NCBI GenBank assembly: GCA_963705355.1
Contig: OY970070.1
Location: 1,906,960-1,970,959, forward strand
Length of the DNA: 64,000 nucleotides
Source of the DNA: an uncultured Thermoplasmata archaeon
GTDB lineage: Archaea; Thermoplasmatota; Thermoplasmata; UBA10834
Reading direction: 5' to 3'
Under the pieces are notes generated by a model that was not told the origin of the DNA, did not search any database, and saw only the letters and a list, made by a program, of their open reading frames with translations. Made by a program: the position numbers and the translations under genes. Of this stretch, positions 532 to 14,384 are shown in pieces; within the stretch, counting starts at the first letter, position 1; each line of letters begins with the position of its first letter.

Positions 532-1968
532 TCAGTCCTCATACTTTTCCAAGATGCAGTTAATCTGCTTCTGGGTCTGCTTGTCCACCTGTTCCGGGAT
601 ATGCGACGAAATGATCTTCTTCGCTCTGTCTTTCGCCCTCTCGACCATGTCCTTCCTGGACTTGTCCAGACGATAGAATGCGAGATTGTCAGTCTTGTCC
701 TGACTCTGAATGAAGAGTTCCTTCCTCATGTTCCTCGCGGTGTGCATCTCCTTCAGGAAGCTGCCTCCGGGACCGACCTTCCTCACAAGATCGACTGCGA
801 AATGCTCGTCATCAAAGGCAACATCTCTTCGCAATTCCCGAACGTTTTCCCAGAGGTCGCAATCGATTATGATCTGCTCCAGCGACGCGCCCAACGCCTG
901 ATCGAGCCCGCCGATTCCCGATGCGAAATCTGTCAGAGCCAGAGACGTGAGGCTCGTGAACAAGAGTTCCGCCGGATCGAAATACACTCCTGGCGATTCT
1001 CCGCCGAGCCCGACCCCGAAACCGCCGACCATCGTGGAAGCGCCGTAGTACTTTGCCATCTGTGCGGCCGCGCTCGCGATCAAAGCCTCTTCGACAGCAC
1101 CGTAGTGTATCTCTCCCGTCCTCATGTTCGGCGAGGTCGATTCCGAGCTGTATACGACGGGCGCTCCAGCCTTTGTTATCTGGGATATTGCGAAGCTAGC
1201 GAGATTCTCCGCATTCACGATCGCTATTGTGGAAGCTAGGGTGACGGGAGATGTGAGCCCTGTCAGAGCCATCGACATCGAGACGACTGGTATCCCAGCG
1301 CTCGCGAATTCCATCAGGGCTTCGACCGAGCCCTTCTCGAACTCCAGCGGGCAAATGGGACACTGGACCACCGAGAACAAAGGCCTCTTGGCAAGCGCAT
1401 CCTCTCCGCCGGCGATTGCTGCGGCAACCTCGACTTCCGCTCTCGCCTCCTCCGCAGACATAGCCTCTCCTTGGACATGCTTGGTCGTGTTCAGAAGGGA
1501 AATCGTGAGTTCGCTCAAGGCATGGGTTCTGTCCGGAGCGTCATGCGCAGTAACGATCGGCCAGACATAATCGAGCGGATCCATCGCGTCGCAGAGTACC
1601 ATGAAATCCTTGAGATCCTTGCCCAGCGTGGTGTGCTTCTCCCCGGTCTCGAGATCGGTCATGTAGACGGCGGTGCCGTTCGTCGCCATATATGGTGGTC
1701 CAGTCTTCGGAGCTAGCATGTCTTGTTTCGGATTCCTCGCGCAAAGATTCACGGTCTTCGGAAGCTTTTTCACAGTCTCCTTGACCAAGCTTTCTGGAAT
1801 GCTAGCATGCATGCCCTTTCTGTCTATCTTTGCCCCGCCGCTCTCAAGCATCTTGAGCGCTCTCTCGCTTCGAACCATCACGCCTGGGTTCTCCAATATG
1901 CGCAGCGTCTTTTTGTGAACAAGTTCTATGTCACTCTTCGACAGAATGCTTATCTGGGCTACCGCCAT
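532..1968 (-). CDS. trimethylamine/quaternary-amine methyltransferase MttB-superfamily protein (non-pyrrolysine type)
   Basis: 478 aa. Length and conserved blocks are typical of the MttB family (VVQCPICPLEF..., GGFGVGLGGESPGVYFDP). The ORF is uninterrupted, with no in-frame TAG. Confidence 0.7.
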   Translation of the reverse strand: MAVAQISILSKSDIELVHKKTLRILENPGVMVRSERALKMLESGGAKIDRKGMHASIPESLVKETVKKLPKTVNLCARNPKQDMLAPKTGPPYMATNGTAVYMTDLETGEKHTTLGKDLKDFMVLCDAMDPLDYVWPIVTAHDAPDRTHALSELTISLLNTTKHVQGEAMSAEEARAEVEVAAAIAGGEDALAKRPLFSVVQCPICPLEFEKGSVEALMEFASAGIPVVSMSMALTGLTSPVTLASTIAIVNAENLASFAISQITKAGAPVVYSSESTSPNMRTGEIHYGAVEEALIASAAAQMAKYYGASTMVGGFGVGLGGESPGVYFDPAELLFTSLTSLALTDFASGIGGLDQALGASLEQIIIDCDLWENVRELRRDVAFDDEHFAVDLVRKVGPGGSFLKEMHTARNMRKELFIQSQDKTDNLAFYRLDKSRKDMVERAKDRAKKIISSHIPEQVDKQTQKQINCILEKYED

Positions 1969-2023
1969 TCTCCCGCTCCGAGAACCGAGATTGAGAGTGA
2001 GGTAATTAATCCATTGGCCCCCA

Positions 2024-3304
2024 GTGGATGACTATCTCAACGATCTCTTCGGACCAAGTGGACAAATGGTGTTCGAGACTCTCAGGGCATATCCCAGGGC
2101 TTTCAAGGTGCTCGTGGCGAGCGCACTGATCGAGAACATGGCTTTTGGCCTCATAATTCCGTATTTGACGATTTATATGACTGCTGATATCAAAATCTCG
2201 GATGCGGCCGCGGGTGTCGTGCTAATGGGCTATACTCTTTCGGGCATACCCGCTGCGATATTCGGCGGCATGCTCGCCGACAAGATCGGAAGGAGGACCG
2301 TCCTTCTCATCAGCCTGGGTTTGATGGCGATCACGATATTCATGTATTGGTTCGCCTTCGATTTCGTCTCCTTGCTCGCGATCGCCCTTGCGGACTCCTT
2401 TGTTGGCTCGCTTTACATGCCCGCTGCGAACGCGATGATAGCTGATGTGATTCCGTCGGAGAAGAGGCCTCAAGCCTACAGCACGCAGAGGATCGCTTGG
2501 AATGTCGGCTTGATATTCGGCCCCGCGGCGGGTGCAGCCATCGTCGCAAGCAGCTCCATACAGCATCTGTTCGCATTCGGCTCCGTGATCCTTGCGGTGG
2601 CCTTCACGATGAACTTCTTCTTCATCCCGGAGACAAAGCCAGACAAGACCGGTGAAGAGGTGACCTTCAGGAAAGTGGCTGAGGTCCGTAAGAACAGGCC
2701 GTTCCTCCTCCTGTGCGCGATGAGCGGCATATTTTGGTTCGGTTCGACCCAGTTCATGTCTGCATTCCCAGTGTACGTCACCAGGGAACTCGCTCTTCCC
2801 AATACTGACCCTGGGGTTCTGTGGGCGATAAATGGTGCGATGATCGTCCTGCTCCAGCTCTGGGTCACATCGAAGGCTGTGAAGCTCAGAAGATCCGTCG
2901 TCCTAACGGCCGGACAAATCGTTAGTTCGGTCGGATTGGGCCTACTGTTCTTCGCAGCCGGTCTACCTGAGTTGATCGCGTTCATCGTCGTCATGACAAT
3001 AGGTGAACTCATCTACATGTCAATCCTCTCTGCGGTCATCGCTGACATGTCGCCTGAGGACAAGCGCGGCATCTACATGGGCTTCGCTGGATTCATGCAG
3101 ACCCTCGGCATGGGCGCGGGCATGCTCGTCGGCATGTGGCTCCTGGGGGCCCTCGCATCCCAGAGCGCCTATCTCTGGGCGTTCTTTGGAGTCGTGGGCG
3201 TATCGACGAGCCTCGCATACTTGGTCTTCGGCCGGATGGTCGGACCTGAGAAGGATCATCCATCGAAGTTCGGAGTCCCCGCTCCTTCAATGCAGTTGCA
3301 CTGA
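2024..3304 (+). CDS. MFS transporter
   Basis: 426 aa with about 12 predicted TM helices. An MFS signature lies between TM2 and TM3 (GMLADKIGRR). Confidence 0.8.
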   Translation: MDDYLNDLFGPSGQMVFETLRAYPRAFKVLVASALIENMAFGLIIPYLTIYMTADIKISDAAAGVVLMGYTLSGIPAAIFGGMLADKIGRRTVLLISLGLMAITIFMYWFAFDFVSLLAIALADSFVGSLYMPAANAMIADVIPSEKRPQAYSTQRIAWNVGLIFGPAAGAAIVASSSIQHLFAFGSVILAVAFTMNFFFIPETKPDKTGEEVTFRKVAEVRKNRPFLLLCAMSGIFWFGSTQFMSAFPVYVTRELALPNTDPGVLWAINGAMIVLLQLWVTSKAVKLRRSVVLTAGQIVSSVGLGLLFFAAGLPELIAFIVVMTIGELIYMSILSAVIADMSPEDKRGIYMGFAGFMQTLGMGAGMLVGMWLLGALASQSAYLWAFFGVVGVSTSLAYLVFGRMVGPEKDHPSKFGVPAPSMQLH

Positions 3305-3384
3305 GAACAAGAGAAATCCAAAAGGTGAAGGGGTTTTCCAGCCCATCCTCTTGGGATGAACTGATTCAGCAATGCGAAGCGATC

Positions 3385-3942
3385 CTAGAATCGTCTTCGG
3401 CCCTTGTTCATGTAGCTGGGCCTGTCGCTGCTATCTCTGTCTCCGCCTCTGTCGCCATAGCCGCCGCGCCTCTCGCGACCGCCACCATAGCCACCGCGGC
3501 TTCCGCCTCCGCCGAAGCTCCTGCGCTCCTGTTCGTACTCCTTGTCGCTCATGTTCAGCGCGGTGCTTGAGCCGTCAAGCGGCTTCTCGCTCTTTGTGAG
3601 CTGGCCGTACTTGCCGACGTTCAGGCGCATGTGTCCCCTGACCAGCGAGACGTAACCGTTCTTGATCGCCATCACATCGTCCTTGACAATGCTTCCGATC
3701 TGGTTGTCCCACAGGGAGAGGATGATCGCACCCGTCTCGTCCGCTACAGTCGCCTCTGCGACCTTTCTGGAGTTCCCGAACTTTCCGGGGATGTCCTTTG
3801 GCTCGCTGACCTCAAGGCACTTGGCCAATACGTCCACTCTCTTCGATTGTGGCGTGAGGTCCTTTATCTTCGTCTCTACGCTTGCTTGCTCTTCCGAGCT
3901 TTGTCCAACGCTCTCTTCCATGTCTATTCTTCCTTTGTGCAC
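3385..3942 (-). CDS. OB-fold ssDNA-binding (SSB/RPA-like) protein with C-terminal RGG/Gly-rich tail
   Basis: OB-fold core resembling euryarchaeal SSBs (KFGNSRKVAEATVADETGAIILSLWDNQ...). The tail is Gly/Arg-rich (GGGGSRGGYGGGRERRGGYGDRGGDRD). The start is probably Met8 (3921). Confidence 0.55.
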   Translation of the reverse strand: MHKGRIDMEESVGQSSEEQASVETKIKDLTPQSKRVDVLAKCLEVSEPKDIPGKFGNSRKVAEATVADETGAIILSLWDNQIGSIVKDDVMAIKNGYVSLVRGHMRLNVGKYGQLTKSEKPLDGSSTALNMSDKEYEQERRSFGGGGSRGGYGGGRERRGGYGDRGGDRDSSDRPSYMNKGRRRF

Positions 3943-4336
3943 AATTGTCTCCGGCTAGCACGCGAGTCAAACTATCGGCTTCAAAACATCAGCGATGTTC
4001 GGCTTGTCGTATCACTCGGCACAACTAGTGCTGGTTTAACGACTGTGCATGACACTATTAATAATCTTGCCCGATACTAGGCCAACGTGCGGCCGTCATT
4101 GTGCCGATTTGCGCAATCCCAGCTTCAGTCAGCGCGTTCAACTAGACGGCTCTGCTCTGAGAAACAGCTATATATACTCCTGTGCGTACGGCGTTACCTG
4201 TTTGAGGAGCATAGCGCCGTTGAGACCTGCAAGGACACTCCGCACGGAGGTCTGCTCCCCGCCGGAGCAGTGGGTTCATGATGCTCGCGATCGATTCACG
4301 GAAGGGACTTTGAGGACCGCATGTCCCTGAGGGGGG

Positions 4337-6337
4337 ATGCACATGGTTGACGACGGTGTAGGCCGGGCTATTTACCCTGGTGCGGCACCCTCTCCCGCCC
4401 CCCCTACCGAGTTCTCGCCAAAACCTGAACGGCATGAGGGCGGGATCGCAGCCGAAATCGCTGCTCTTGGGATAGAAAATCTGCGCGTTGCGGTTGCTTC
4501 CGGCGAGCGGCTCCTGTACTCACGCGACCAATCTGAGATCCCGCGCTTCCTCAGAGAGATCATGTTCAACTCGGTCCCCGAGGCAGTTGTTCTGGCGAAA
4601 TCGGCTGAGGCGGTCTCGGCCGTTGTTCGATTCGCCTCTTCGAATGGCATCACTGTCATACCCAGAGGTTCAGGCTCGTCGCCCTTCGGCGGTTCGGTCC
4701 CTGTCTCCGGAGGCATCGTGATCGATGTCTCGGGCATGGACAGGATCATCAACATCGATGTTCCAGGCAAGACGGCGAGTGTCGAGGCGGGAGCGAGATG
4801 GGCAGACCTGGATCATGAGCTGGAGAAGCACGGCCTATGCCTGAACACGAGTCCGTCGAGCAAGTTCTCGACCGTCGCGGGATGGGTCGCGACGGGCGGG
4901 ATGGGATTGAACAGCTTCTCGAAGGGTCATCTGAGTTCGAGTGTTCTGTCGGTCGATGTCGTGACTCCAGACGGGCTGAAGAGGACGGTCCAGAGCGGCG
5001 ACCCGATGTTCCCCGCGATCTTCGGAAGTGAAGGGCAGCTCGGGGTGATCACGGCAGTGACTCTTGGCGTCCGCAAGATCCCGAAGAGATTCAAGCCGCA
5101 TTTGATATTCTTCAAAGACCCGAAGAGCGCCTTGAACTTCACACGCTCTCTGGCAGAGAGTGGAGTCCACCCTGCTCACATCTTGTACGAGAGCGCCGCG
5201 AAGTTCTCTCTCATCAACAGGATGCTAGGCCAGAGCCGCTTCAGCGCCGCTGACGCCATCATCGTGAGCATCGAGGGCGAGGAGTCGGAGCAGCTTTACC
5301 AGAGCTTCACGAAGGCCGCGGGTCTCAAGGAGGAGAAGGAGTACCTCGCGCGGTACATGTGGAACGAGAGGTACTTCCCCATGAAGGTTCGCAAGTTCGG
5401 ACCGGGGATGCTTGGATCCGAGGTTATGGTGCCTCAGAGACTTCTTCCAGATGTTCTCACGAAGGCTGCCGACCTGTGCCAAGAGCTCGGGCTCGAGCCC
5501 CTCTTTGAGATACACTTCACCAATGAAGGCCATGGTCTGCTCCTGTGTTACTACGTGACGGACCAGGGCAACACGATAGGCTACACCCTGGACGCGCTCA
5601 AGTCCATGCTTCTCACATCGATGCTGATTGAGAGCGGCGCAAAGCCATACTCTGTCGGCATTTGGAACCATCCGTTCTCGAACGCCGAAGAGCGACCACG
5701 CGTCGATCGCCTGCGACAAGCGAAGGCTACAATGGATCCAAAGGGCGTCATGAACTCTGGAAAGTACTTCTCGCTCTCTGGAAGATTCGGCGGACTCGCC
5801 GCGATGGCCTTCAATCCCAGATTGATGAGGCCAGTGCTGAAGACGATGCGGGTCTTCTCCCCGATCACCATGCGATTCATGCGGATGGGATATGGTTTCG
5901 CTGCCAGGAGGCTGAAGCCGAAGTCAAGGAGCGAACTTCTTCGGATTGCAGACGAGTGCGCCATGTGCGGAGCTTGTGTGAGCGTCTGCCCGGCTTACCT
6001 CGTCGTGGGCGATGAGAGGGTCACCGGAAGAGGGAAGCTGTTGACTGTCAAGGCGATGGCGCGCGGCGCCAAGATATCGAAGGAGCACTCGGACAGGATC
6101 TTCCTGTGCATGAAGTGCAAGGCGTGCGAGCAGGTCTGTCAATCGAAGCTCGAGCTCGTCAAAGCCTACGAAGCACTTGAGAAGGAACTTGAGCAGATTC
6201 ACGGCAAGGACGCTCAGGAGATCGAGAAGTTCATCCGGTACGTGGAGAACACCTCCGAGTACGATGAGCTTGTCGAGCGCGGTCTCGTAATAGGTGCTCC
6301 GAAGCACGGGATGGGAGGTGGTGCGGCTGACGTTTGA
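4337..6337 (+). CDS. FAD-binding (PCMH/GlcD-type) oxidoreductase fused to C-terminal 2x[4Fe-4S] ferredoxin-like domain (D-lactate/glycolate dehydrogenase-like)
   Basis: FAD_binding_4 motifs (VIPRGSGSSPFGGSV, GSEGQLGVIT). Two C-terminal Cys clusters (CAMCGACVSVCP and CMKCKACEQVCQ). Confidence 0.8.
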   Translation: MHMVDDGVGRAIYPGAAPSPAPPTEFSPKPERHEGGIAAEIAALGIENLRVAVASGERLLYSRDQSEIPRFLREIMFNSVPEAVVLAKSAEAVSAVVRFASSNGITVIPRGSGSSPFGGSVPVSGGIVIDVSGMDRIINIDVPGKTASVEAGARWADLDHELEKHGLCLNTSPSSKFSTVAGWVATGGMGLNSFSKGHLSSSVLSVDVVTPDGLKRTVQSGDPMFPAIFGSEGQLGVITAVTLGVRKIPKRFKPHLIFFKDPKSALNFTRSLAESGVHPAHILYESAAKFSLINRMLGQSRFSAADAIIVSIEGEESEQLYQSFTKAAGLKEEKEYLARYMWNERYFPMKVRKFGPGMLGSEVMVPQRLLPDVLTKAADLCQELGLEPLFEIHFTNEGHGLLLCYYVTDQGNTIGYTLDALKSMLLTSMLIESGAKPYSVGIWNHPFSNAEERPRVDRLRQAKATMDPKGVMNSGKYFSLSGRFGGLAAMAFNPRLMRPVLKTMRVFSPITMRFMRMGYGFAARRLKPKSRSELLRIADECAMCGACVSVCPAYLVVGDERVTGRGKLLTVKAMARGAKISKEHSDRIFLCMKCKACEQVCQSKLELVKAYEALEKELEQIHGKDAQEIEKFIRYVENTSEYDELVERGLVIGAPKHGMGGGAADV

Positions 6338-7718
6338 GCGATACCACATACCCCTCAATACGGTTCAGGGAAGAGCGACACCAGTCCCGAAGTTCGTGAT
6401 AACGCGCACGGATAACTGCATCAACTGCGGCAAGTGCGAGAAGGCCTGCATCTATGGCGTGCACAAGAGGAGCGAGCAAGACCTGCGCAAGATGGCCGAC
6501 CCCATCAATCAGCTCTGCAAGAACTGCTTCAGATGCATAGAGGATTGCCCTCAGAGATCATTGTCAATGGCCCCTGGCACGGAATACAAGTCCTTGGGGC
6601 GCGGGACCTGGACCCCGCTGAGGATAACGACGATCTGGGGCGAGGCGGAGACAGGCAAGATTCCCGTTCTTGGCGCTGGCTACCGCGGCATGTTCGCTGG
6701 ACCTGGCTACGACGGCATGTGGACGGACATGTCCGAGATAGTCAGGCCCACGCGTGACGGTATCCACGGCAGAGAATTCATCTCAACGAGCGTCGACATC
6801 GGCAGAAAGCCCGCTTGGCTTGAGTTCGGGAAGAACGGCAATGTCCTCACCGAGATCCCGCCTATCATCGAGTTGCCCATACCTGTGATAGTGGACGTAA
6901 CGAGGCTGAGGTCGGTGAGCGATGATATGATGACTGGCTTCGCCCGCGCGGCAAAGCATCTGAACACTCTCATCCTGGCCTCTCCGGGTTCTCCGCTTTC
7001 TCAGGCGTCCGCGGAGCTCAACAGCCATTACGTCCCGGTGTTCCCGGAAGGCGCGGATGTTCGCACCATCGAGATACCCAAAGGGGTCCAGATGGTCGAA
7101 CTGCAATACGGATCTGGATGGAGAGGGGACGCGAATCTGTTCAGGTCGAGGTTTCCCGGTGTTGTCCTCTCCTTCAGGATGGAGTCCGGCAGAGGCATCG
7201 AGCAAAAGATCCTCGAGCTTGTCCAGGCCAAGGTCGACGCCGCCCATGTCCTCTATGACGAGGAGAGCGCGGAGCTCGACAGGAACGATTTCAGGCACGC
7301 TAAGGACAGCCTGCGTGCTATCCACAGAGCGCTGGTCGCAAGGGCGATTCGCGACCAGATCACTCTAATCGCTGGAGGAGGGATCGCCGCTGCGGAGCAT
7401 GTTCCGAAGAGCATCATCTGCGGTGCGGACATCGTCGCGCTCGAGAAGGCGCTGGTCATAGCGCTCGAGTGCAGAGATTGTATCAGTTGCTCGAAGGGCT
7501 CGTGCCCCATAAACCTGCACAGCGCGCCCCTAGATTGGGTCGAAGGGCGCGTGACCAACATGATTGGCGCTTGGAGAGACCAGCTTCTCGAGGTTCTCGG
7601 AGCCATGGGCCTCAGGGAAGTCCGAAGGCTGAGGGGAGAGTTTGGCAGGGCGATCTTCTATGAGGACGTCGAGCGAGAAGCGTTCTCGGAGATAGAAGGA
7701 GGCGAGACGAATGGCTGA
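6294..7718 (+). CDS. glutamate synthase large-subunit domain-2 (FMN) paralog with N-terminal 4Fe-4S ferredoxin domain
   Basis: N-terminal CINCGKCEKAC...CKNCFRCIEDCP. The C-terminus is a TIM-barrel like GltB domain 2 (IAGGGIAAAEHVPKSIICGADIVALEKA...CRDCISCSKGSCP) but lacks the canonical GGTGA block. It overlaps the next gene, suggesting an operon. Confidence 0.65.
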   Translation: MLRSTGWEVVRLTFERYHIPLNTVQGRATPVPKFVITRTDNCINCGKCEKACIYGVHKRSEQDLRKMADPINQLCKNCFRCIEDCPQRSLSMAPGTEYKSLGRGTWTPLRITTIWGEAETGKIPVLGAGYRGMFAGPGYDGMWTDMSEIVRPTRDGIHGREFISTSVDIGRKPAWLEFGKNGNVLTEIPPIIELPIPVIVDVTRLRSVSDDMMTGFARAAKHLNTLILASPGSPLSQASAELNSHYVPVFPEGADVRTIEIPKGVQMVELQYGSGWRGDANLFRSRFPGVVLSFRMESGRGIEQKILELVQAKVDAAHVLYDEESAELDRNDFRHAKDSLRAIHRALVARAIRDQITLIAGGGIAAAEHVPKSIICGADIVALEKALVIALECRDCISCSKGSCPINLHSAPLDWVEGRVTNMIGAWRDQLLEVLGAMGLREVRRLRGEFGRAIFYEDVEREAFSEIEGGETNG

Positions 7719-9222
7719 GGCCGAGAAGGTCTGCCCTAAGGATATCCCGGAGGCAGCCCTCATCCCCTCCGAGCATCTCAAGTTCGTCAACCGATTCACG
7801 GTGAAGAGGGCAGACACCTGCATCTCGTGCGGCACTTGCGCGAGTCTGTGCCCCTACGGAGTTCACAAGAGGATCGAGGGCCACGCAAAGATCCTCCCGC
7901 CAGACGATAGGAAGTGCATTGGACCGTCCTGCGAGGTTAACTACTTCTTCTGCGTCGCGAACTGCCCAACGAACTCGCTTTCAGTGAGCACAAGCGAGAC
8001 CTTCTTCAGCCTCGGCGACCCGCGTTGGACCTCTGAGATGATACTCGCCACTTGGGCCATGGCTGAGACCGGGAGGCCACTTCCGCTCGATCATCCCGGA
8101 AACGTCGGAGCTTCTGAGGGCGGGTTTGACAGACTGCAGTTCAAGCTCCCCGAACCGAAGGGGGGGTTCGAACCAGCGGAGATATGCACGGCTATCGACC
8201 TCAACAGGCGTGATTCTGGGGCGATGATCAGGATACCCATTCCGATCTACGGCGGGGGAATGTCATTCGGCTCTGTGAGCGTCTACACGATGGTCGCTAG
8301 GGCGAAGGCTGCCAAGAAGTGGAGCACATTCACCTGCACGGGAGAGGGAGGCTATCCAGACGCGCTGATCCCGTACAAGGACCATGTCATCACACAGATC
8401 GCCACTGGCCTGTTCGGCGTCCGCGAGGAGACCATCCAGCGCACTAGGATCGTCGAGTTCAAGTACGCTCAGGGGGCGAAGCCTGGCCTCGGGGGCCACC
8501 TGCTCCACGACAAGAACACGCCTGAAGTCGCGAGGATGCGAGAGGCCGTGCCGTATACGAGCCTGTTCTCACCGTTCCCGTTCCACAGTGTCTACTCGGT
8601 CGAGGACCACAAGAAGCATCTGGACTGGGCGCATGCGATCAATCCGACTGCACTTCTCGCGGTGAAGGTGTCGACGCCGAACGATGTCGAGATGGTGTCG
8701 GTCGGAAGCTACTACGCTGGAGCGCACATCGTCCATCTCGACGGCGGCTACGGAGGGACAGGCGCTGCGCCCGAGATCGCTAAGAAGAACATCGCGATGC
8801 CGATAGAGTATGCCATCCCGAAGGTCCATAAATTCCTCGTCAACGAGGGTATCCGAGACCAGATCACGCTGCTGGCCAGCGGAGGCCTCAGGACCGCGCT
8901 GGACGTCGCCAAGGCGATCGCCCTGGGAGCTGATGGTGCGGTCATCGGGACCGCGGACCTCGTTGCCCTCGGGTGCGTCAGATGCGGCAACTGCGAGAGC
9001 GGCCGAGGCTGTCCTCGTGGCATCGCGACTACAGACCCCATCCTGGACAAGCTGACAGATGCCGACTGGGGCGCCGAAAGGATCTCCAATCTCTACAGCG
9101 CCTGGAGGCTGCAGTGGTGCGAACTCCTTTCTAGGTTCGAGATGTCCGATATCGCGGAGCTGCGCGGCCGGACGGACTTGCTGAGGAACTCAGGCAACCC
9201 GGCGAAGGAGGTGGGCAGGTGA
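7711..9222 (+). CDS. gltB: glutamate synthase FMN-binding subunit (GltB domain 2, archaeal split type) with N-terminal ferredoxin domain
   Basis: Core FMN-domain blocks (HIVHLDGGYGGTGAAP, LLASGGLRTALDVAKAIALGADGAVIGTADLVALGCVRCGNCESGRGCPRGIATTD). N-terminal CISCGTCASLCP. Confidence 0.85.
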   Translation: MAEAEKVCPKDIPEAALIPSEHLKFVNRFTVKRADTCISCGTCASLCPYGVHKRIEGHAKILPPDDRKCIGPSCEVNYFFCVANCPTNSLSVSTSETFFSLGDPRWTSEMILATWAMAETGRPLPLDHPGNVGASEGGFDRLQFKLPEPKGGFEPAEICTAIDLNRRDSGAMIRIPIPIYGGGMSFGSVSVYTMVARAKAAKKWSTFTCTGEGGYPDALIPYKDHVITQIATGLFGVREETIQRTRIVEFKYAQGAKPGLGGHLLHDKNTPEVARMREAVPYTSLFSPFPFHSVYSVEDHKKHLDWAHAINPTALLAVKVSTPNDVEMVSVGSYYAGAHIVHLDGGYGGTGAAPEIAKKNIAMPIEYAIPKVHKFLVNEGIRDQITLLASGGLRTALDVAKAIALGADGAVIGTADLVALGCVRCGNCESGRGCPRGIATTDPILDKLTDADWGAERISNLYSAWRLQWCELLSRFEMSDIAELRGRTDLLRNSGNPAKEVGR

Positions 9223-11852
9223 CCGAAGATACCAAGGCCTTGCTCGAATCACGGGAATGGATGACCTCGTTGAGGACCAACACATCGGCCCACTCTCAAG
9301 AGGCTGAGGGCGGCTGCGGTGTTGTCGGGATAGCCAGTTCCGTCCCTCTCGCGGGGAAGCACATCCTCGGTCCGCTGGTGCAGATGCACAACAGAGGGAA
9401 CGGGAAGGGCGGAGGCATCGCAGCGGTCGGCCTCTCACCAGAGCAGATGGGCGTGCCGAAGAGGGTTCTTGAAGAGGACTACCTTGTCCAGGTCGCCTAT
9501 CTCAAGCCTGCGATACGCGAAGCCCTTGAGGAGGAGTTCATCAAGCCGAACTACAGGATAGAGAGGAAGTACAAGGTCGAGATTAGCACCGACAAGGCGC
9601 TCATTTCATCACTGGAAATCACTCCGCCTGAAGTCTGGAGGTACTTCTGCAGGGCGAAGAAGGAGGCTCTCGACAACTTCGTCAGGAGGCATAAGCTCGA
9701 AAGGCTCGAGCCGCGCAAGGCGGAGGACGAGCTCGTCTATCAGACAAGCTTCAGCATCAACAAGAAGTACTACGCGACATCCGACATGTCCGCCTTCGTC
9801 ATGTCCCACGGAAGGAACATGATTGTGATGAAGATCGTCGGATATGCCGAGGACGTCATCAGGTACTACAAGCTCGAGGATTTGAAAGCGTATGTGTGGA
9901 TCGGGCACCAGAGATACCCGACCAAGGGAAGGGTCTGGCATCCTGGAGGGGCGCACCCGTTCGTGGGCCTTGACGAGGCCCTTGTGCACAACGGCGACTT
10001 CGCCAACTACTACTCAGTTTCCGAGTACCTCGCGCAGAGAAACGTCGTCCCCCTGTTCCTCACGGACACGGAGGTCTCGGTCCTCCTATTCGATGTCCTG
10101 AACAGGGCATACGGCTACCCGCTCGAGTACATCATAGAAGCTTTTGCCCCGACGACCGAGCGCGACTTCACGCTGCTGCCGGAGGAGAAGCAGAAGGTCT
10201 ACAGGGCGATCCAGGCGACGCACATCCATGGTTCCCCAGACGGCCCGTGGTTCTTCATAATCGGCAGGAACTGTTTCTACGAGAACAAGTTCCAGCTGAT
10301 GGGCATCACGGACACATCGATGTTGAGACCACAGGTCTTCGCCCTGGTCGATGGTGGCATTCAGCTCGGCCTCATCGCATCTGAGAAACAGGCGATCGAT
10401 GCCGCTCTCAAGAGCGTCTCCTCAGAATTCCCGTCCGTGCCTGGATATGCCGACATGTACTGGAACGCGAGAGGCGGCAGCCACACGGACGGCGGAGCGT
10501 TCATCTTCAGCCTGTACCCCGAGAAGGGCACTGCGGATGGCATGCGGCTCATATGCACGAACAAGTTCGGAACGCCGGTCACGAGCCCGTCGATGGATTG
10601 GAGCAGGGAGGACGACCTAGCGCTCGCCGAGCCGTTGCCAAGCAGGCCAAAGGTGAGCGACCTGGCGAAGGAGCTGATGGCGAAGAAGAACCCAAGAAGC
10701 GCGCTGGATCTCCTCGTCAGCAAGTTCGGTGAGCTCTCGGGCTCGGAACTCAACGACATCTTCTCCTTCATCGTCCAGCACGCAGCGAAGAGTGATTCGA
10801 CCATGGACGACGGCGTCGAGCTGCTCACCGCGATCATAGACCGCAGGTACTCGTCCGGCAAGTTCAGGCGGAGCAGGATCAACAGGAAGGCGAACGAGGC
10901 TGTCGAGAAGATCCTGAGATCGGCCAGGAGGATCGAGAAGAGCGGCCACTCACTCTATTCTCTAATCGACCTCAAGAACATGGAGAAGCTCGGTGAAGCT
11001 ATCTCGCCATACGACAAGCTCGTCATTGACTGCGCTGGTTTCCCCATGGAAGGCGATGGCGGAGTCTCCTTCGCGATCAAGAGGGCAAGGGACCTCGGAT
11101 GGAACCGCGTGGTCGTCGTCGGCGTTCACGGGCAGAGATTCATCGGTGCTGGTCTCGGGCCGAGGACCAGAGGATTCAAAGTAGATGTGTTTGGCAGCCC
11201 AGGCGATTATCTCGGTTCAGGACTGGACGGAGCAGAGGTCGTCGTTCATGCGAACGGACAGGACCAGCTGGGACAGATTCTCAGCGAGGGCAAGCTGGTC
11301 GTCCACGGGGACGTCGGACAGACTTTCCTGTACGGCGCGAAAGGCGGCGAGGCATACGTTCTCGGCAACGCCGCTGGCAGGCCTTTGATCAACGCTGTCG
11401 GAAAGCCCAAGGTCGTGATAAACGGAACATGCCTCGATTACCTGGCAGAATCGTTCATGGCGGGCAACCCGCTCTACGGCGGAGGGTTCGTCGTCCTGAA
11501 CGGAATGACATTCGATGGCAGAGGAAAGCCGATGGATCTCCCGGCTCCATATCCGGGCGGCAATTTGTTCTCGCTTGCCTCTGGAGGCGCTATCTATGTT
11601 CGAGACCCGAAGAAGCTGGTCGGGGAGGAACAATTGAACGGCGGCAGGATCTCCAGACTTACGAGAGCCGATTGGAACCTGATCCTGCCGCACCTGGAAG
11701 AGAACGAGCGACTCTTCGGAATCTCGGTTGAGGATTTCCTGCTGAAGGTCGACGGCGCGAGCAGACCGCCAGAAGAGATCTACAGGAAGATCGAGGCAGT
11801 GCCGCTGGTCACTCTTGCAGGCACAGCTCAGATGCAGGAGACAGGCGACTAG
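9219..11852 (+). CDS. gltB: glutamate synthase subunit: class-II glutamine amidotransferase domain fused to GXGXG (GltB domain 3) domain
   Basis: N-terminal catalytic Cys in GCGVVGI (Ntn-type GATase II). The C-terminus carries GXGXG repeats (VVVVGVHGQRFIGAGLGPR..., VVHGDVGQTFLYGAKGGEAYVLGNAAGRPL). 4-nt overlap with the upstream gene. Confidence 0.85.
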   Translation: MTEDTKALLESREWMTSLRTNTSAHSQEAEGGCGVVGIASSVPLAGKHILGPLVQMHNRGNGKGGGIAAVGLSPEQMGVPKRVLEEDYLVQVAYLKPAIREALEEEFIKPNYRIERKYKVEISTDKALISSLEITPPEVWRYFCRAKKEALDNFVRRHKLERLEPRKAEDELVYQTSFSINKKYYATSDMSAFVMSHGRNMIVMKIVGYAEDVIRYYKLEDLKAYVWIGHQRYPTKGRVWHPGGAHPFVGLDEALVHNGDFANYYSVSEYLAQRNVVPLFLTDTEVSVLLFDVLNRAYGYPLEYIIEAFAPTTERDFTLLPEEKQKVYRAIQATHIHGSPDGPWFFIIGRNCFYENKFQLMGITDTSMLRPQVFALVDGGIQLGLIASEKQAIDAALKSVSSEFPSVPGYADMYWNARGGSHTDGGAFIFSLYPEKGTADGMRLICTNKFGTPVTSPSMDWSREDDLALAEPLPSRPKVSDLAKELMAKKNPRSALDLLVSKFGELSGSELNDIFSFIVQHAAKSDSTMDDGVELLTAIIDRRYSSGKFRRSRINRKANEAVEKILRSARRIEKSGHSLYSLIDLKNMEKLGEAISPYDKLVIDCAGFPMEGDGGVSFAIKRARDLGWNRVVVVGVHGQRFIGAGLGPRTRGFKVDVFGSPGDYLGSGLDGAEVVVHANGQDQLGQILSEGKLVVHGDVGQTFLYGAKGGEAYVLGNAAGRPLINAVGKPKVVINGTCLDYLAESFMAGNPLYGGGFVVLNGMTFDGRGKPMDLPAPYPGGNLFSLASGGAIYVRDPKKLVGEEQLNGGRISRLTRADWNLILPHLEENERLFGISVEDFLLKVDGASRPPEEIYRKIEAVPLVTLAGTAQMQETGD

Positions 11853-12086
11853 CGCGACAATTGTGCCTATTCAAATCGGCTCATTTCCAAACGGCATCGG
11901 CGTTTTTAGAAATGTTTCCGAAATCGAACCTGAAACGTCCCTCTCCATCGGAAGAAACTGCTCCAGACAACTGTGTTCGCGGCAAGCTTAAATACGGACG
12001 TTTTAATCACGCGACCGATAGACATCACGGCCTCGTTCCAAGCCCTCGGGCCGCGCTTCCTGGCCGAGGGCGGGAAGAGTGTTCAA

Positions 12087-12914
12087 ATGTACGAGATAGT
12101 GAAGTCGGAGAAGCTCACTCCGGATGTCATAAGACTGGAGATACGCGCGCCTCAAATCGCGAAGAAGGCGAAAGCGGGACAGTTCGTCATGGTGACACCG
12201 ACTGAGCACGGGGAAAGGATCCCGCTCACCATGGCGGACTTCTCACCGGACGATGGAACGGTCACGATAGCAGCGCTGGAGGTCGGCAAGACCACCAAGG
12301 AGCTCGGCAAGATGAAGGCCGGGGACAAGGTCTTCAGCCTGGTCGGCCCGCTCGGACTCCCGACTCACCTGAAGCAATATGGGAACGTCGTCAGCATCGG
12401 CGGCGGCATAGGCCTCGCTCTGATGTACCCGGTCGTGCGCGCTTTCAAACAGTCCGGCAACCACACAATCAACATCGTCGGCGCAAGGAACGAGAAGCTG
12501 CTGATGTACGAGAAGGAGATCCAGTCCGTCAGCAACGAATTCTTCGTCTGCACCGACGACGGCTCCAAGGGCCACCATGGGTTCGTGAGCGACATCCTGA
12601 AGAAGCTGATTGCCGAGAACAAGAAGATCGACCTCGTCTACGCTGTCGGTCCGATCATCATGATGAAGGTCATCGCTAACATAACGAAGCCATACAACAT
12701 CCCGACAGTCGTCAGCCTCAACCCGATCATGGTCGACGGGACCGGCATGTGCGGCTCGTGCAGGGTGATCATCGCGGGCGAGACCAAGTTCGGCTGCGTA
12801 GACGGGCCCGAGTTCGATGGCCACAAGGTCGACTTCGACAACCTCACGGCCAGGAACAAGAGGTACATCCCCGAGGAGCAGATCTCGCTGAGGAGATTCC
12901 AGGAGACGAAGTAG
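12087..12914 (+). CDS. NfnA/SudB-like ferredoxin-NAD(P)+ reductase small subunit (PyrK-type FAD/[2Fe-2S])
   Basis: PyrK/SudB blocks (RIPLTMADF, GPLGLP, VSIGGGIGLALMYPV). C-terminal CGSCRV...GCVDGPEFDG. The ORF opens at 11973, but Met at 12087 fits the family length. Confidence 0.8.
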   Translation: MYEIVKSEKLTPDVIRLEIRAPQIAKKAKAGQFVMVTPTEHGERIPLTMADFSPDDGTVTIAALEVGKTTKELGKMKAGDKVFSLVGPLGLPTHLKQYGNVVSIGGGIGLALMYPVVRAFKQSGNHTINIVGARNEKLLMYEKEIQSVSNEFFVCTDDGSKGHHGFVSDILKKLIAENKKIDLVYAVGPIIMMKVIANITKPYNIPTVVSLNPIMVDGTGMCGSCRVIIAGETKFGCVDGPEFDGHKVDFDNLTARNKRYIPEEQISLRRFQETK

Positions 12915-14384
12915 ATGGCCGAGGAAGAGAAGAAGCCCAAGAAACTCGTCCCCAAGAAGTACCCGATGCCCGAGCAGGACCCGAAGGAGCGCGTGCACAA
13001 CTTCAACGAGGTGCCGCTTGGTCAGGACGCTCAGGTGGCGATAGCAGAGGCGCAAAGGTGCCTCCAATGCAAGCGCGGGCCGAACAGGAAGGTCTGCATG
13101 GACGGCTGCCCGGTCGAGATCGACATCCCGGTCTTCATCAAAAGGGTCCAAGAGGGGAACTTCGAAGAAGCCATAAGGATCATCAGAGAGAAGCAGAACT
13201 TGCCAGCGGTCTGCGGCAGGGTTTGCCCGTACGAGAACCAGTGCGAGGGCGTCTGCATCGTCGGCAAGAAGAACGAGCCCGTCGGGATCGGCAGGCTTGA
13301 GAGATACCTTGCGGACTGGGAGAGGAAGCAGGGCAAGACGGGCAAGATCGAGGTTCCTCCGCCGACAGGGAAGAAGATCGCAGTTGTGGGCGGCGGTCCA
13401 GCGGGTCTCACGGTCGCGGGCGACCTCGCCAGACTGGGCCACAAGGTGACCATCTTCGAGGCGCTGCAGTACTGCGGCGGCGTGCTGATCTACGGCATCC
13501 CAGAGTTCAGGCTTCCGAAGGAGATCGTGAGAGCAGAGGTCGACTACATCAGGAGGATGGGAGTCGAGATTTTCAACGACTTCGTCGTCGGCAAGCTCGA
13601 GACCGTCGATGAGATGCTGGAGGACTACGACGTTGTCTTCGTGGGAACCGGCGCTGGTCTTCCCGACTGGACCGGCCTTCAGGGGGAGAACCTGAACGGC
13701 ATCATGTCCGCCAACGAGTTCCTGACAAGGGTCAATCTGATGAAGGGCTACAAGTTCCCGGAGTACGACACCCCAATACGCGTGGGCGAGCGCGTGGTCA
13801 CCATCGGCGGAGGCAACGTCGCAATGGACTGCGCGAGGACTTCGCTCAGGCTGGGCTGCAAGGAATCGGTCATCCTCTACAGGAGATCGGACGCAGAGCT
13901 GCCGGCCAGACGCGAGGAGATACACCACGCCAAGGAGGAGGGCGTCAGGTTCGAGCTGCTCGCAGCTCCGCTCGAGTTCATCGGAGACGAGTGCGGCAAC
14001 GTGAAGCAGGTCAAGGCCATCCGCATGCAGCTCGGTGAGCCGGACGCGTCGGGAAGGAAGAGGCCGATCAAGATCCCCGGCTCGGAGTTCCTGATCGATG
14101 CTCAGACAGTCCTGATCGCCATTGGCCAGAGCCCGAATCCGCTGGTCCCGATGACAACGCCCGACCTCAAGACGACCAAGGAGGGCACGATAGCTGTCGA
14201 CCCCGAGGGCAGGACCTCGAAGAAAGGAGTTTTCGCAGGCGGAGACATAGCGTCAGGCGCTGCGACCGTCATCCTTGCAATGGGGGACGGAAAGCGCGCC
14301 GCGAAGGCCATGCACAAGTACCTCACTGAGGACCCGTCTTGGCCGTCACCCGAAGTGTTCGAGAAGCTATCTTGCGAGATCTAG
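12915..14384 (+). CDS. NfnB/SudA/GltD-like NADPH-dependent oxidoreductase (glutamate synthase small-subunit family)
   Basis: N-terminal Cys clusters (CLQCKRGPNRKVCMDGCPVEIDIP, CGRVCPYENQCEGVC). Two dinucleotide folds (KIAVVGGGPAGLTVAGDL, VVTIGGGNVAMDCART). Starts 1 nt after the nfnA stop. Confidence 0.85.
   Translation: MAEEEKKPKKLVPKKYPMPEQDPKERVHNFNEVPLGQDAQVAIAEAQRCLQCKRGPNRKVCMDGCPVEIDIPVFIKRVQEGNFEEAIRIIREKQNLPAVCGRVCPYENQCEGVCIVGKKNEPVGIGRLERYLADWERKQGKTGKIEVPPPTGKKIAVVGGGPAGLTVAGDLARLGHKVTIFEALQYCGGVLIYGIPEFRLPKEIVRAEVDYIRRMGVEIFNDFVVGKLETVDEMLEDYDVVFVGTGAGLPDWTGLQGENLNGIMSANEFLTRVNLMKGYKFPEYDTPIRVGERVVTIGGGNVAMDCARTSLRLGCKESVILYRRSDAELPARREEIHHAKEEGVRFELLAAPLEFIGDECGNVKQVKAIRMQLGEPDASGRKRPIKIPGSEFLIDAQTVLIAIGQSPNPLVPMTTPDLKTTKEGTIAVDPEGRTSKKGVFAGGDIASGAATVILAMGDGKRAAKAMHKYLTEDPSWPSPEVFEKLSCEI

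Follow-up and report, generated by a model that had tools for sequence, protein, structure and literature searches.

Our results on a gene cluster from an uncultured Thermoplasmata archaeon (GCA_963705355.1, contig OY970070.1, positions 1,906,960 to 1,970,959 of the forward strand; this whole stretch of 64,000 nucleotides is called the window) point to a distinct way of assembling a glutamate synthase (GOGAT). Nitrogen enters biomass at two points, and this enzyme is one of them. In archaea, it is known mainly as open reading frames (ORFs) for individual domains (PMC8097209). The cluster is composed of six genes, O1 to O6, the first four of which would encode an iron-sulfur flavoprotein glutamate synthase of a separate architectural class, O5 and O6 being merely an adjacent NfnAB pair; we give this reading a probability of about 0.6. 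Domain content, catalytic motifs, folds, conservation and synteny were read directly from the data, and the subunit contacts, electron path, donor and activity proposed below are derived from them.

The window's genome (G000), 1.98 Mb long, is in one contig and has a completeness of 98.6%; the window is C1:1906960-1970959 of it. It was compared with a phylum sample (n = 201), whose genomes are labelled G, loci being labelled L and families f; gene coordinates are positions in the window. A preliminary description, made from the letters alone, had proposed six co-directional, partly overlapping genes at 4337-14384: a flavin adenine dinucleotide (FAD) oxidase fused to a 2x[4Fe-4S] domain, two paralogues of the flavin mononucleotide (FMN) domain of GltB, a fusion of the class-II amidotransferase (GATase) with the GXGXG domain, and PyrK-like and GltD-like subunits. 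The six ORFs lie on the + strand at these coordinates, and annotation with Pfam and NCBIfam profiles agrees with these domains (Table 1). The first four genes overlap (O1/O2; O2/O3 by 8 nt; O3/O4 by 4 nt), O2 starting anywhere within 6294-6330, and O4 is separated from O5 by 120-234 nt. The O5 ORF opens at 11973, but its match to the NF004862 family begins only at residue 39, so that the ATG at 12087 is the probable true start.

O4 is a single chain, made of an N-terminal nucleophile (Ntn, class II) glutaminase (residues ~33-450), a helical linker (~463-567) and a GXGXG beta-helix (~580-812). Cys33 (AEGG-C-GV) and the HNRG, RYPT, HNGD and TDTE motifs do not vary among 30 sequences; from an alignment to PurF, we take them as the counterparts of Cys1, Arg, Asn-Gly and Asp in PurF-type glutaminases. 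A propeptide of ~32 residues, presumably cleaved off, is probable ahead of Cys33. The GXGXG domain scores 47 bits with PF01493, above the 32.5 cut-off, and is seen as a beta-helix at 580-812 in the fold model (pLDDT 82, pTM 0.84), together with the Ntn domain and the helical linker. The best Foldseek matches of this model are the GltS alpha chains 6s6s, 7mfm and 1ofd, aligned over both end domains (TMq 0.46-0.49), and the Ntn fold is also like those of PurF and GlmS. Two defining parts of a glutamate synthase, a class-II glutaminase domain with its catalytic residues and a C-terminal GXGXG beta-helix, are therefore both predicted in O4.

The joining of GATase and GXGXG in one polypeptide is genuine. 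That two genes had been merged by a sequencing or assembly error, which the preliminary description had named as one way in which it could be wrong, is rejected by the conservation of more than 100 full-length homologues of 63-96% identity. Full-length copies are also carried by 17 of the 201 genomes of the phylum sample (identity 47-63%), and at least 591 O4-related loci are found in species-representative genomes of archaea and bacteria.

O3 would be the catalytic FMN subunit. It aligns to Azospirillum GltS 857-1173 (E 1e-46) and retains AQGAKPG, GGTGA and ASGG, as well as a four-Cys cluster site before CP.GIAT; in full, its motifs are AQGAKPGLGGHL, GGTGAAP, ASGG and C-x2-C-x2-C-x5-C-P-x-G-I-A-T. 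Judged from its sequence, O3 has what is expected of GltS, namely an FMN/synthase (beta/alpha)8 domain, a 2-oxoglutarate loop and an adjacent Fe-S cluster.

Like the FMN subunit of the classical split archaeal GOGAT, O3 has an N-terminal ferredoxin domain, a four-Cys cluster motif and a GAKPG.GGHL substrate loop, and both enzymes occur in archaea. The classical enzyme, encoded by separate GATase, Fer4-FMN and GXGXG genes, has however neither the GATase-GXGXG fusion nor an O2 partner. Its FMN subunit (loci L028-L032) is only ~31% identical to O3 and forms a separate clade of the O3 tree (99 SH-aLRT), a tree from a quick IQ-TREE search with a very long E. coli branch, which we use for its well-supported clades only. 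Both types are encoded together in at least two genomes (G121 and G184). The cluster thus appears to fall outside the classical split GOGAT, by its fused O4, its additional O2 subunit and the position of O3 in another clade, and the O2-O3-O4 family is to be regarded as distinct from it. The data support the non-classical partition of domains proposed initially for a glutamate-synthase-type cluster.

O2 had been described as a divergent paralogue of the GltB FMN domain without GGTGA, and this loop is indeed absent, as is AQGAKPG. O2 covers only positions 260-367 of the PF01645 profile, with the strand-7 motif GGG...K..I.CGAD retained. A C-x2-C-x2-C-x4-C-P site and the N-terminal 2x[4Fe-4S] domain are likewise present in O2 of the window's class. 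It has invariant motifs of its own, TDMSEIVRPTRDGIHGRE and AWRDQLLE..GAMG.REVRRLRGE, one of which sits in a loop (125-162) that is disordered in the AlphaFold model, as an interface segment might be. The AF2 model of O2 is a complete FMN-type TIM barrel, whose best match is the FMN domain of GltS (788-1193, Z 19.4). O2 is thus best described, from its motifs and predicted fold, as a degenerate and presumably non-catalytic FMN-domain duplicate, standing in the position of the GltS central domain.

The relationship of O2 to this central domain was also considered. Reviews describe the GltS central domain as a truncated barrel lining the ammonia tunnel, and leave its origin open ("duplication ... 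or independent origin"). A strict sequence homology between O2 and the central domain is not upheld: a hidden Markov model (HMM) of the O2 domain, built from 135 sequences, matches E. coli GltB at 977-1121, which is the FMN domain, and leaves its central domain unmatched, and VIA-align likewise places O2 on the FMN domain. O2 nevertheless fits a central domain before its deletion, because it sits directly upstream of the FMN domain or is fused N-terminally to it, and because the Glu_syn_central profile PF04898 matches the O2 half of one such fusion (L016; 36.1 bits for a gathering threshold of 22.8) and most bacterial O2-O3 fusions. Among stand-alone O2 proteins, 4 of 15 match PF04898, weakly. 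A common origin of O2 and the GltS central domain is plausible but unproven, and O2 offers a testable intermediate for it.

The preliminary description had presented the architecture as unusual. Far from a local oddity, it belongs to a large family. Among the matches listed, archaeal carriers belong to Thermoplasmata, Methanomassiliicoccales, ANME-1/Methanophagales, Methanospirareceae and Bathyarchaeia, and bacterial carriers to Desulfobacterota, Chloroflexota, Planctomycetota, Verrucomicrobiota, Aminicenantes, Latescibacterota, Bipolaricaulota, Nitrospirota, Actinomycetota, Bacillota and Fraserbacteria. Synteny was assessed by tblastn of the six window proteins on the locus flanks, 47 reference loci having at least 5.3 kb of upstream sequence. 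Each of the 17 phylum-sample carriers has the O2-O3-O4 triad, O2 included, and so do 45 of the 47 reference loci: the conserved unit, called the core hereafter, is O2-O3-O4.

O2 and O3 are mostly encoded by adjacent genes (45 loci). According to an ORF-containment test, they form one polypeptide in L016 and L017 (family f40) and in six reference loci. Such an O2-O3 fusion is also carried by more than 1000 bacterial proteins of 930-1070 aa, 59-67% identical to O3 and annotated as "glutamate synthase-related protein" or "alpha-hydroxy-acid oxidizing protein". These names are misleading, as is "NADPH-dependent glutamate synthase" for NfnB, and affect metabolic reconstructions of these lineages. 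In two other loci, L056 (ANME-1 G37) and L103 (Desulfobacteraceae), an O4-type gene was observed with O2 and O3 absent within 9 kb on both sides; in L103, a GltD-like gene lies ~4.8 kb downstream of it.

O1 combines a VAO/PCMH-type FAD flavoprotein and a 2x[4Fe-4S] domain (HdrC/GlcF-N-like) in one chain, with eight Cys invariant across archaeal and bacterial orthologues. Its gene stands directly 5' of O2 in all relatives of the same class (L001, L002, L013-15) and in 12 of the 47 reference loci, including ANME-1, Methanospirareceae, Desulfobacteria, Eubacteriales and Fraserbacteria; it has the same position in metagenome-assembled genomes of Acidobacteria and Bipolaricaulota and in L035 and L036. 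Together with Thermoplasmata and Methanomassiliicoccales, this upstream position, often with overlapping genes, recurs in at least nine lineages.

Other redox modules are found at the same place. In 31 of the 47 reference loci, the O1 position is filled by FlpD/MvhD, DUF5981 (PF12225) and MTHFR-like genes, which points to a MetF-like flavoprotein taken over to donate electrons to the core, and not serving as methylene-tetrahydrofolate reductase. Tight linkage of the MvhD-DUF5981-MTHFR-like genes to the core was observed in L033, L034, L058, L060 and ~27 other reference loci, and extends over Desulfobacterota, Chloroflexota, Planctomycetota, Verrucomicrobiota and Actinomycetota. Family f40 has yet another, third type of module: O2O3-O4 are followed by genes for EtfB, for an EtfA bearing a ferredoxin domain at its N-terminus and for a protein with a CCG domain (L016 6311-10097, G077; L098). 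In the O3 tree, the O1-type Thermoplasmata sequences form a clade (99) and a second O1-type clade is nested among MvhD/MetVF-type sequences, which indicates module exchange. Finally, families f13 and f28 have no input module nearby; their O3 has lost its ferredoxin domain and their O2 most of its cysteines, as expected if these domains and cysteines serve to take electrons from the module. O1 is thus probably an exchangeable electron-input subunit. The core takes at least three unrelated input modules, and its electron supply appears to be tuned to the metabolism of the host.

O1 could alternatively be an independent D-2-hydroxy-acid (lactate or glycolate) dehydrogenase, with no physical or electronic tie to the synthase. 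Among solved structures, those of LDHD, LctD and glycolate oxidase are nearest to it (~89 bits), and many carriers of the core are devoid of O1. Besides the recurrent gene order and the replacement of O1 by other redox modules, however, no CCG or membrane partner is found that could receive its electrons, and the LDHD catalytic motif is not kept, GEHGIG being replaced by an invariant RPY.G.W. O1 also scores far below the GlcD equivalog cut-off (TIGR00387, 119 versus 568 bits), with only the superfamily fold in common. We consider an independent dehydrogenase highly unlikely. A complex prediction between O2 and the Fe-S tail of O1 (residues 505-666) gave a score of 0.00, which is no verdict either way.

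O5 and O6 were identified as the PyrK-like FAD/[2Fe-2S] small subunit and the GltD-like FAD/2x[4Fe-4S] large subunit of NfnAB (SudAB), to which their profile scores assign them; their genes abut (12914/12915). One reading, that of the preliminary description, is that O1 to O6 form one operon, encoding a split GOGAT with an NfnAB/SudAB-like pair as dedicated electron module, possibly confurcating electrons from NAD(P)H and ferredoxin. O5 and O6 are indeed directly downstream, on the same strand, and GltD-like proteins are the classical electron donors of GOGAT (PMC8097209). NfnAB also adjoins the core in L001, from a complete genome, and in six Thermoplasmata reference loci. These seven loci are however the only ones, and all belong to the window's clade: NfnAB was not seen beside the core in the bacterial, ANME-1 or Methanomassiliicoccales reference loci. 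Whereas NfnB is single-copy in G000, its homologues lie on other contigs in three carriers (G121, G164 and G184, a Methanomassiliicoccales-type family), and none was found in a fourth (G185) at E<=1e-20.

The 234-nt spacer between O4 and O5 argues in the same direction. It contains a T5 run and a promoter-like BRE/TATA box, GCAAGCTTAAATA; no other block of the spacer is strongly conserved when the window is compared with L001. As O5 and O6 also score as standard NfnAB/GltA equivalogs, they are probably a housekeeping NfnAB under its own promoter, a neighbour rather than a dedicated subunit, and a single operon with NfnAB as electron module seems to us quite improbable. The proposal of a re-wired glutamate synthase therefore stands at its electron-input end, owing to O1 as a recurrent partner and to O2, and is not supported for the part assigned to NfnAB.

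One may propose how an enzyme composed of O1 to O4 would work. O4 would hydrolyse glutamine at its N-terminal Cys, exposed by loss of the ~32-residue propeptide, its fused beta-helix playing the same structural role as in GltB. Ammonia would reach O3, where FMN would reduce the 2-iminoglutarate formed from 2-oxoglutarate. O2, as a catalytically dead duplicate of the O3 barrel, could serve both as a scaffold or tunnel wall and, via its Fe-S sites, as part of the electron wire. O1 would oxidise a two-electron donor at its FAD, a 2-hydroxy-acid-like substrate or a pyridine nucleotide being candidates, and its two [4Fe-4S] clusters would pass single electrons to the ferredoxin domains of O2 and O3. 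O5 and O6 would act as an ordinary NfnAB transhydrogenase, contributing at most indirectly to the supply of reduced carriers.

The genomic context of the core in many lineages supports a role as glutamate synthase. A nitrogen-assimilation gene adjoins the core in 16 loci overall and in 15 of the 47 reference loci, this gene being glnA in 11 and amt/glnK in 9 of the 47. The order is amt-glnK-amt-glnK-glnA-[module-core]-asnB-nadE-carB in L034, and amt-PII-PII-nadE precedes the core in L002.

Several results nevertheless weigh against a glutamate synthase made of O1 to O4, at least one working in nitrogen assimilation. No assayed enzyme of this class was found in the literature, and the donor of O1 cannot be named, as its score is far below the GlcD cut-off and GEHGIG is replaced. 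In G000, glutamine synthetase (GS) was not found with PF00120 and PF03951, even at E<=1, nor glutaminase with PF04960, although a GDH (glutamate dehydrogenase) and at least three class-I glutamine amidotransferases are encoded there. Within the phylum sample, a PF00120 match is missing from 11 of the 17 carriers, compared to 10 of the 184 non-carriers. A GS-GOGAT cycle cannot be the role of the core in G000 and the other carriers in which no GS was found.

The carriers without a GS match are G000, the two genomes of f28 and, without exception, the eight carriers of f13, with completeness of 91-98.6%; as they are mutually related, this is a pattern and not a statistic. In f13, six other genomes have a weak GS-like PF00120 match (E 1e-15 to 1e-20) and no cluster; within this family, cluster and GS-like match never occur together in the sample, a split observed even inside one genus (g75: G185 versus G075 and G177). 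The occurrence of the core without GS implies either a dependence on external glutamine or an unrecognised route or role. The simplest reading is that these carriers salvage peptide-derived glutamine; another amide donor, or an unrecognised source of glutamine, is possible.

These observations bear on the alternative that the core of G000 is not assimilatory, using another amide donor or 2-oxo acid (for example as an N-methylglutamate-synthase-like enzyme), or working in catabolism, where it would convert peptide-derived glutamine into glutamate for GDH. Besides the missing GS and glutaminase in a near-complete genome, and the recurrence of GS absence in f13 and f28 with its complementary pattern inside f13, such a role would be in agreement with the genes of an MttB-superfamily methyltransferase and a major facilitator superfamily (MFS) transporter upstream of the cluster in both G000 and L001, with the single GDH gene of G000 (C1:1897261-1897962), ~10 kb away, and, in L025, with nearby genes for the ATPases of oligopeptide ABC transporters. 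However, the Ntn domain shows no variation in its glutamine-binding and catalytic residues, the substrate loop of O3 is the same as in the classical archaeal GOGAT, and the same family is located inside glnA/amt/glnK operons in many other lineages. Moreover, a salvage version would still catalyse the GOGAT reaction, in which glutamine, 2-oxoglutarate and two electrons yield two glutamate. As to N-methylglutamate synthase (MgsABC), a GltB-like enzyme of three subunits linked to genes for gamma-glutamylmethylamide synthetase (GmaS) and NMG dehydrogenase (Mgd), neither a GS-like (GmaS) gene in G000 nor Mgd-like genes in the cluster flanks were found. A non-assimilatory core is in our opinion unlikely, and a glutamate synthase formed by O1 to O4 is preferred.

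When this proposed enzyme is compared to known ones, it contains the same four elements, with the same catalytic motifs, as GltB/GltD (Azospirillum 1ea0/6s6s, B. subtilis 7mfm) and the ferredoxin-dependent Fd-GltS (Synechocystis 1ofd): an Ntn glutaminase, a second barrel upstream of the FMN barrel, an FMN/Fe-S synthase barrel and a GXGXG beta-helix. Their arrangement differs from that of GltB. The glutaminase is here joined directly to the beta-helix, and the two barrels are on separate genes or joined to each other. O2 is a complete, Fe-S-bearing barrel, whereas the GltB central domain is truncated. The cluster site has four Cys instead of three, both barrels have N-terminal 2x[4Fe-4S] domains, and the donor would not be GltD.

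Archaeal glutamate synthase cores recruiting different dedicated electron-input modules are reminiscent of what has been proposed for methanogens and ANME, namely F420-dependent glutamate synthases (FGltS) whose input modules are FrhB-like (PMC3448663, PMC9012536). The cluster is however without an FrhB-like gene, the input being of the VAO/PCMH-type FAD plus 2x[4Fe-4S] kind here, and MvhD/MetV/MetF-like or EtfAB elsewhere. O1 has the FAD_binding_4/FAD-oxidase_C fold in common with LctD (of the LctBCD-Etf complex), LDHD and GlcD, but differs from them by its scores below equivalog cut-offs, its replaced catalytic/metal motif and its fused 2x[4Fe-4S] domain without CCG domains; in f40, the place of O1 is taken by an Etf bearing a ferredoxin domain, a further likeness to LctBCD-Etf. 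By NCBIfam scores above the cut-offs, O5 and O6 belong with NfnAB/SudAB (T. maritima, P. furiosus), here a neighbour and not a conserved part of the synthase.

No published description of the O1-O4 architecture was found in the literature on archaeal, Methanomassiliicoccales or Poseidoniales glutamate synthase and on MvhD/MetF links, and GapMind 2026 does not treat it. The cluster would represent a third and very widespread arrangement of glutamate synthase, present in at least 591 species-level genomes of bacterial and archaeal anaerobes, ANME-1 and sulfate reducers among them. A more far-reaching possibility, which we regard as doubtful, combines several of these points. O2 would be an undeleted, full-barrel and Fe-S-binding GltS central domain, documenting the duplication-fusion-deletion route proposed for GltB, and bacterial GltB would derive from O2-O3 inserted in the linker of an O4-like gene; in archaea without GS, the synthase would be driven directly by a substrate-oxidising VAO-type flavoprotein, and not by NAD(P)H, ferredoxin or F420.

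Table 1. Genes and sequence elements of the cluster, in window coordinates.
Feature	Coordinates	Strand	Length	Profile matches and remarks
TATA-like box	4168..4177	+		heads a conserved ~160-nt leader 5' of O1
O1	4337..6337	+	666 aa	FAD_binding_4 (128 bits), FAD-oxidase_C, Fer4_8
O2	6294..7718	+	474 aa	Fer4; C-terminal third of PF01645 (E 7.5e-11)
O3	7711..9222	+	503 aa	Fer4; full-length PF01645 (289 bits)
O4	9219..11852	+	877 aa	GATase_6 (weak), GXGXG
T5 run	11903..11907	+		3' of O4; possible archaeal terminator, as read from sequence
BRE/TATA-like box, GCAAGCTTAAATA	11982..11994	+		~93 nt before the O5 ATG
O5	12087..12914	+		PRK06222/NF004862 (398 bits, cut-off 220); NfnA/SudB, PyrK-like
O6	12915..14384	+		TIGR01316 (604 bits, cut-off 472); NfnB/SudA, GltD-like

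The TATA-like box upstream of O1 is kept between the window and L001 while the surrounding sequence has diverged. Several conserved blocks, including a GCTCC...GGAGC hairpin, follow it 3' (window 4100-4336; L001 4900-5140), and this region could be a regulatory 5' leader; an Rfam scan of 3900-4400 gave nothing at E<=1.

The synteny of the window and L001 extends on both sides of the cluster. Upstream (window 532-3942; L001 1327-4682), the MttB-superfamily methyltransferase and MFS transporter genes are accompanied by SSB-like OB-fold genes. Downstream are genes for a GAF histidine kinase, an FTR-like protein and glutaredoxin, the O4 proteins of both loci being 66% identical. In the f13 loci L025, L026 and L020, the cluster has as repeated neighbours the genes for a PrsW-family intramembrane protease and for a membrane protein with DUF92.

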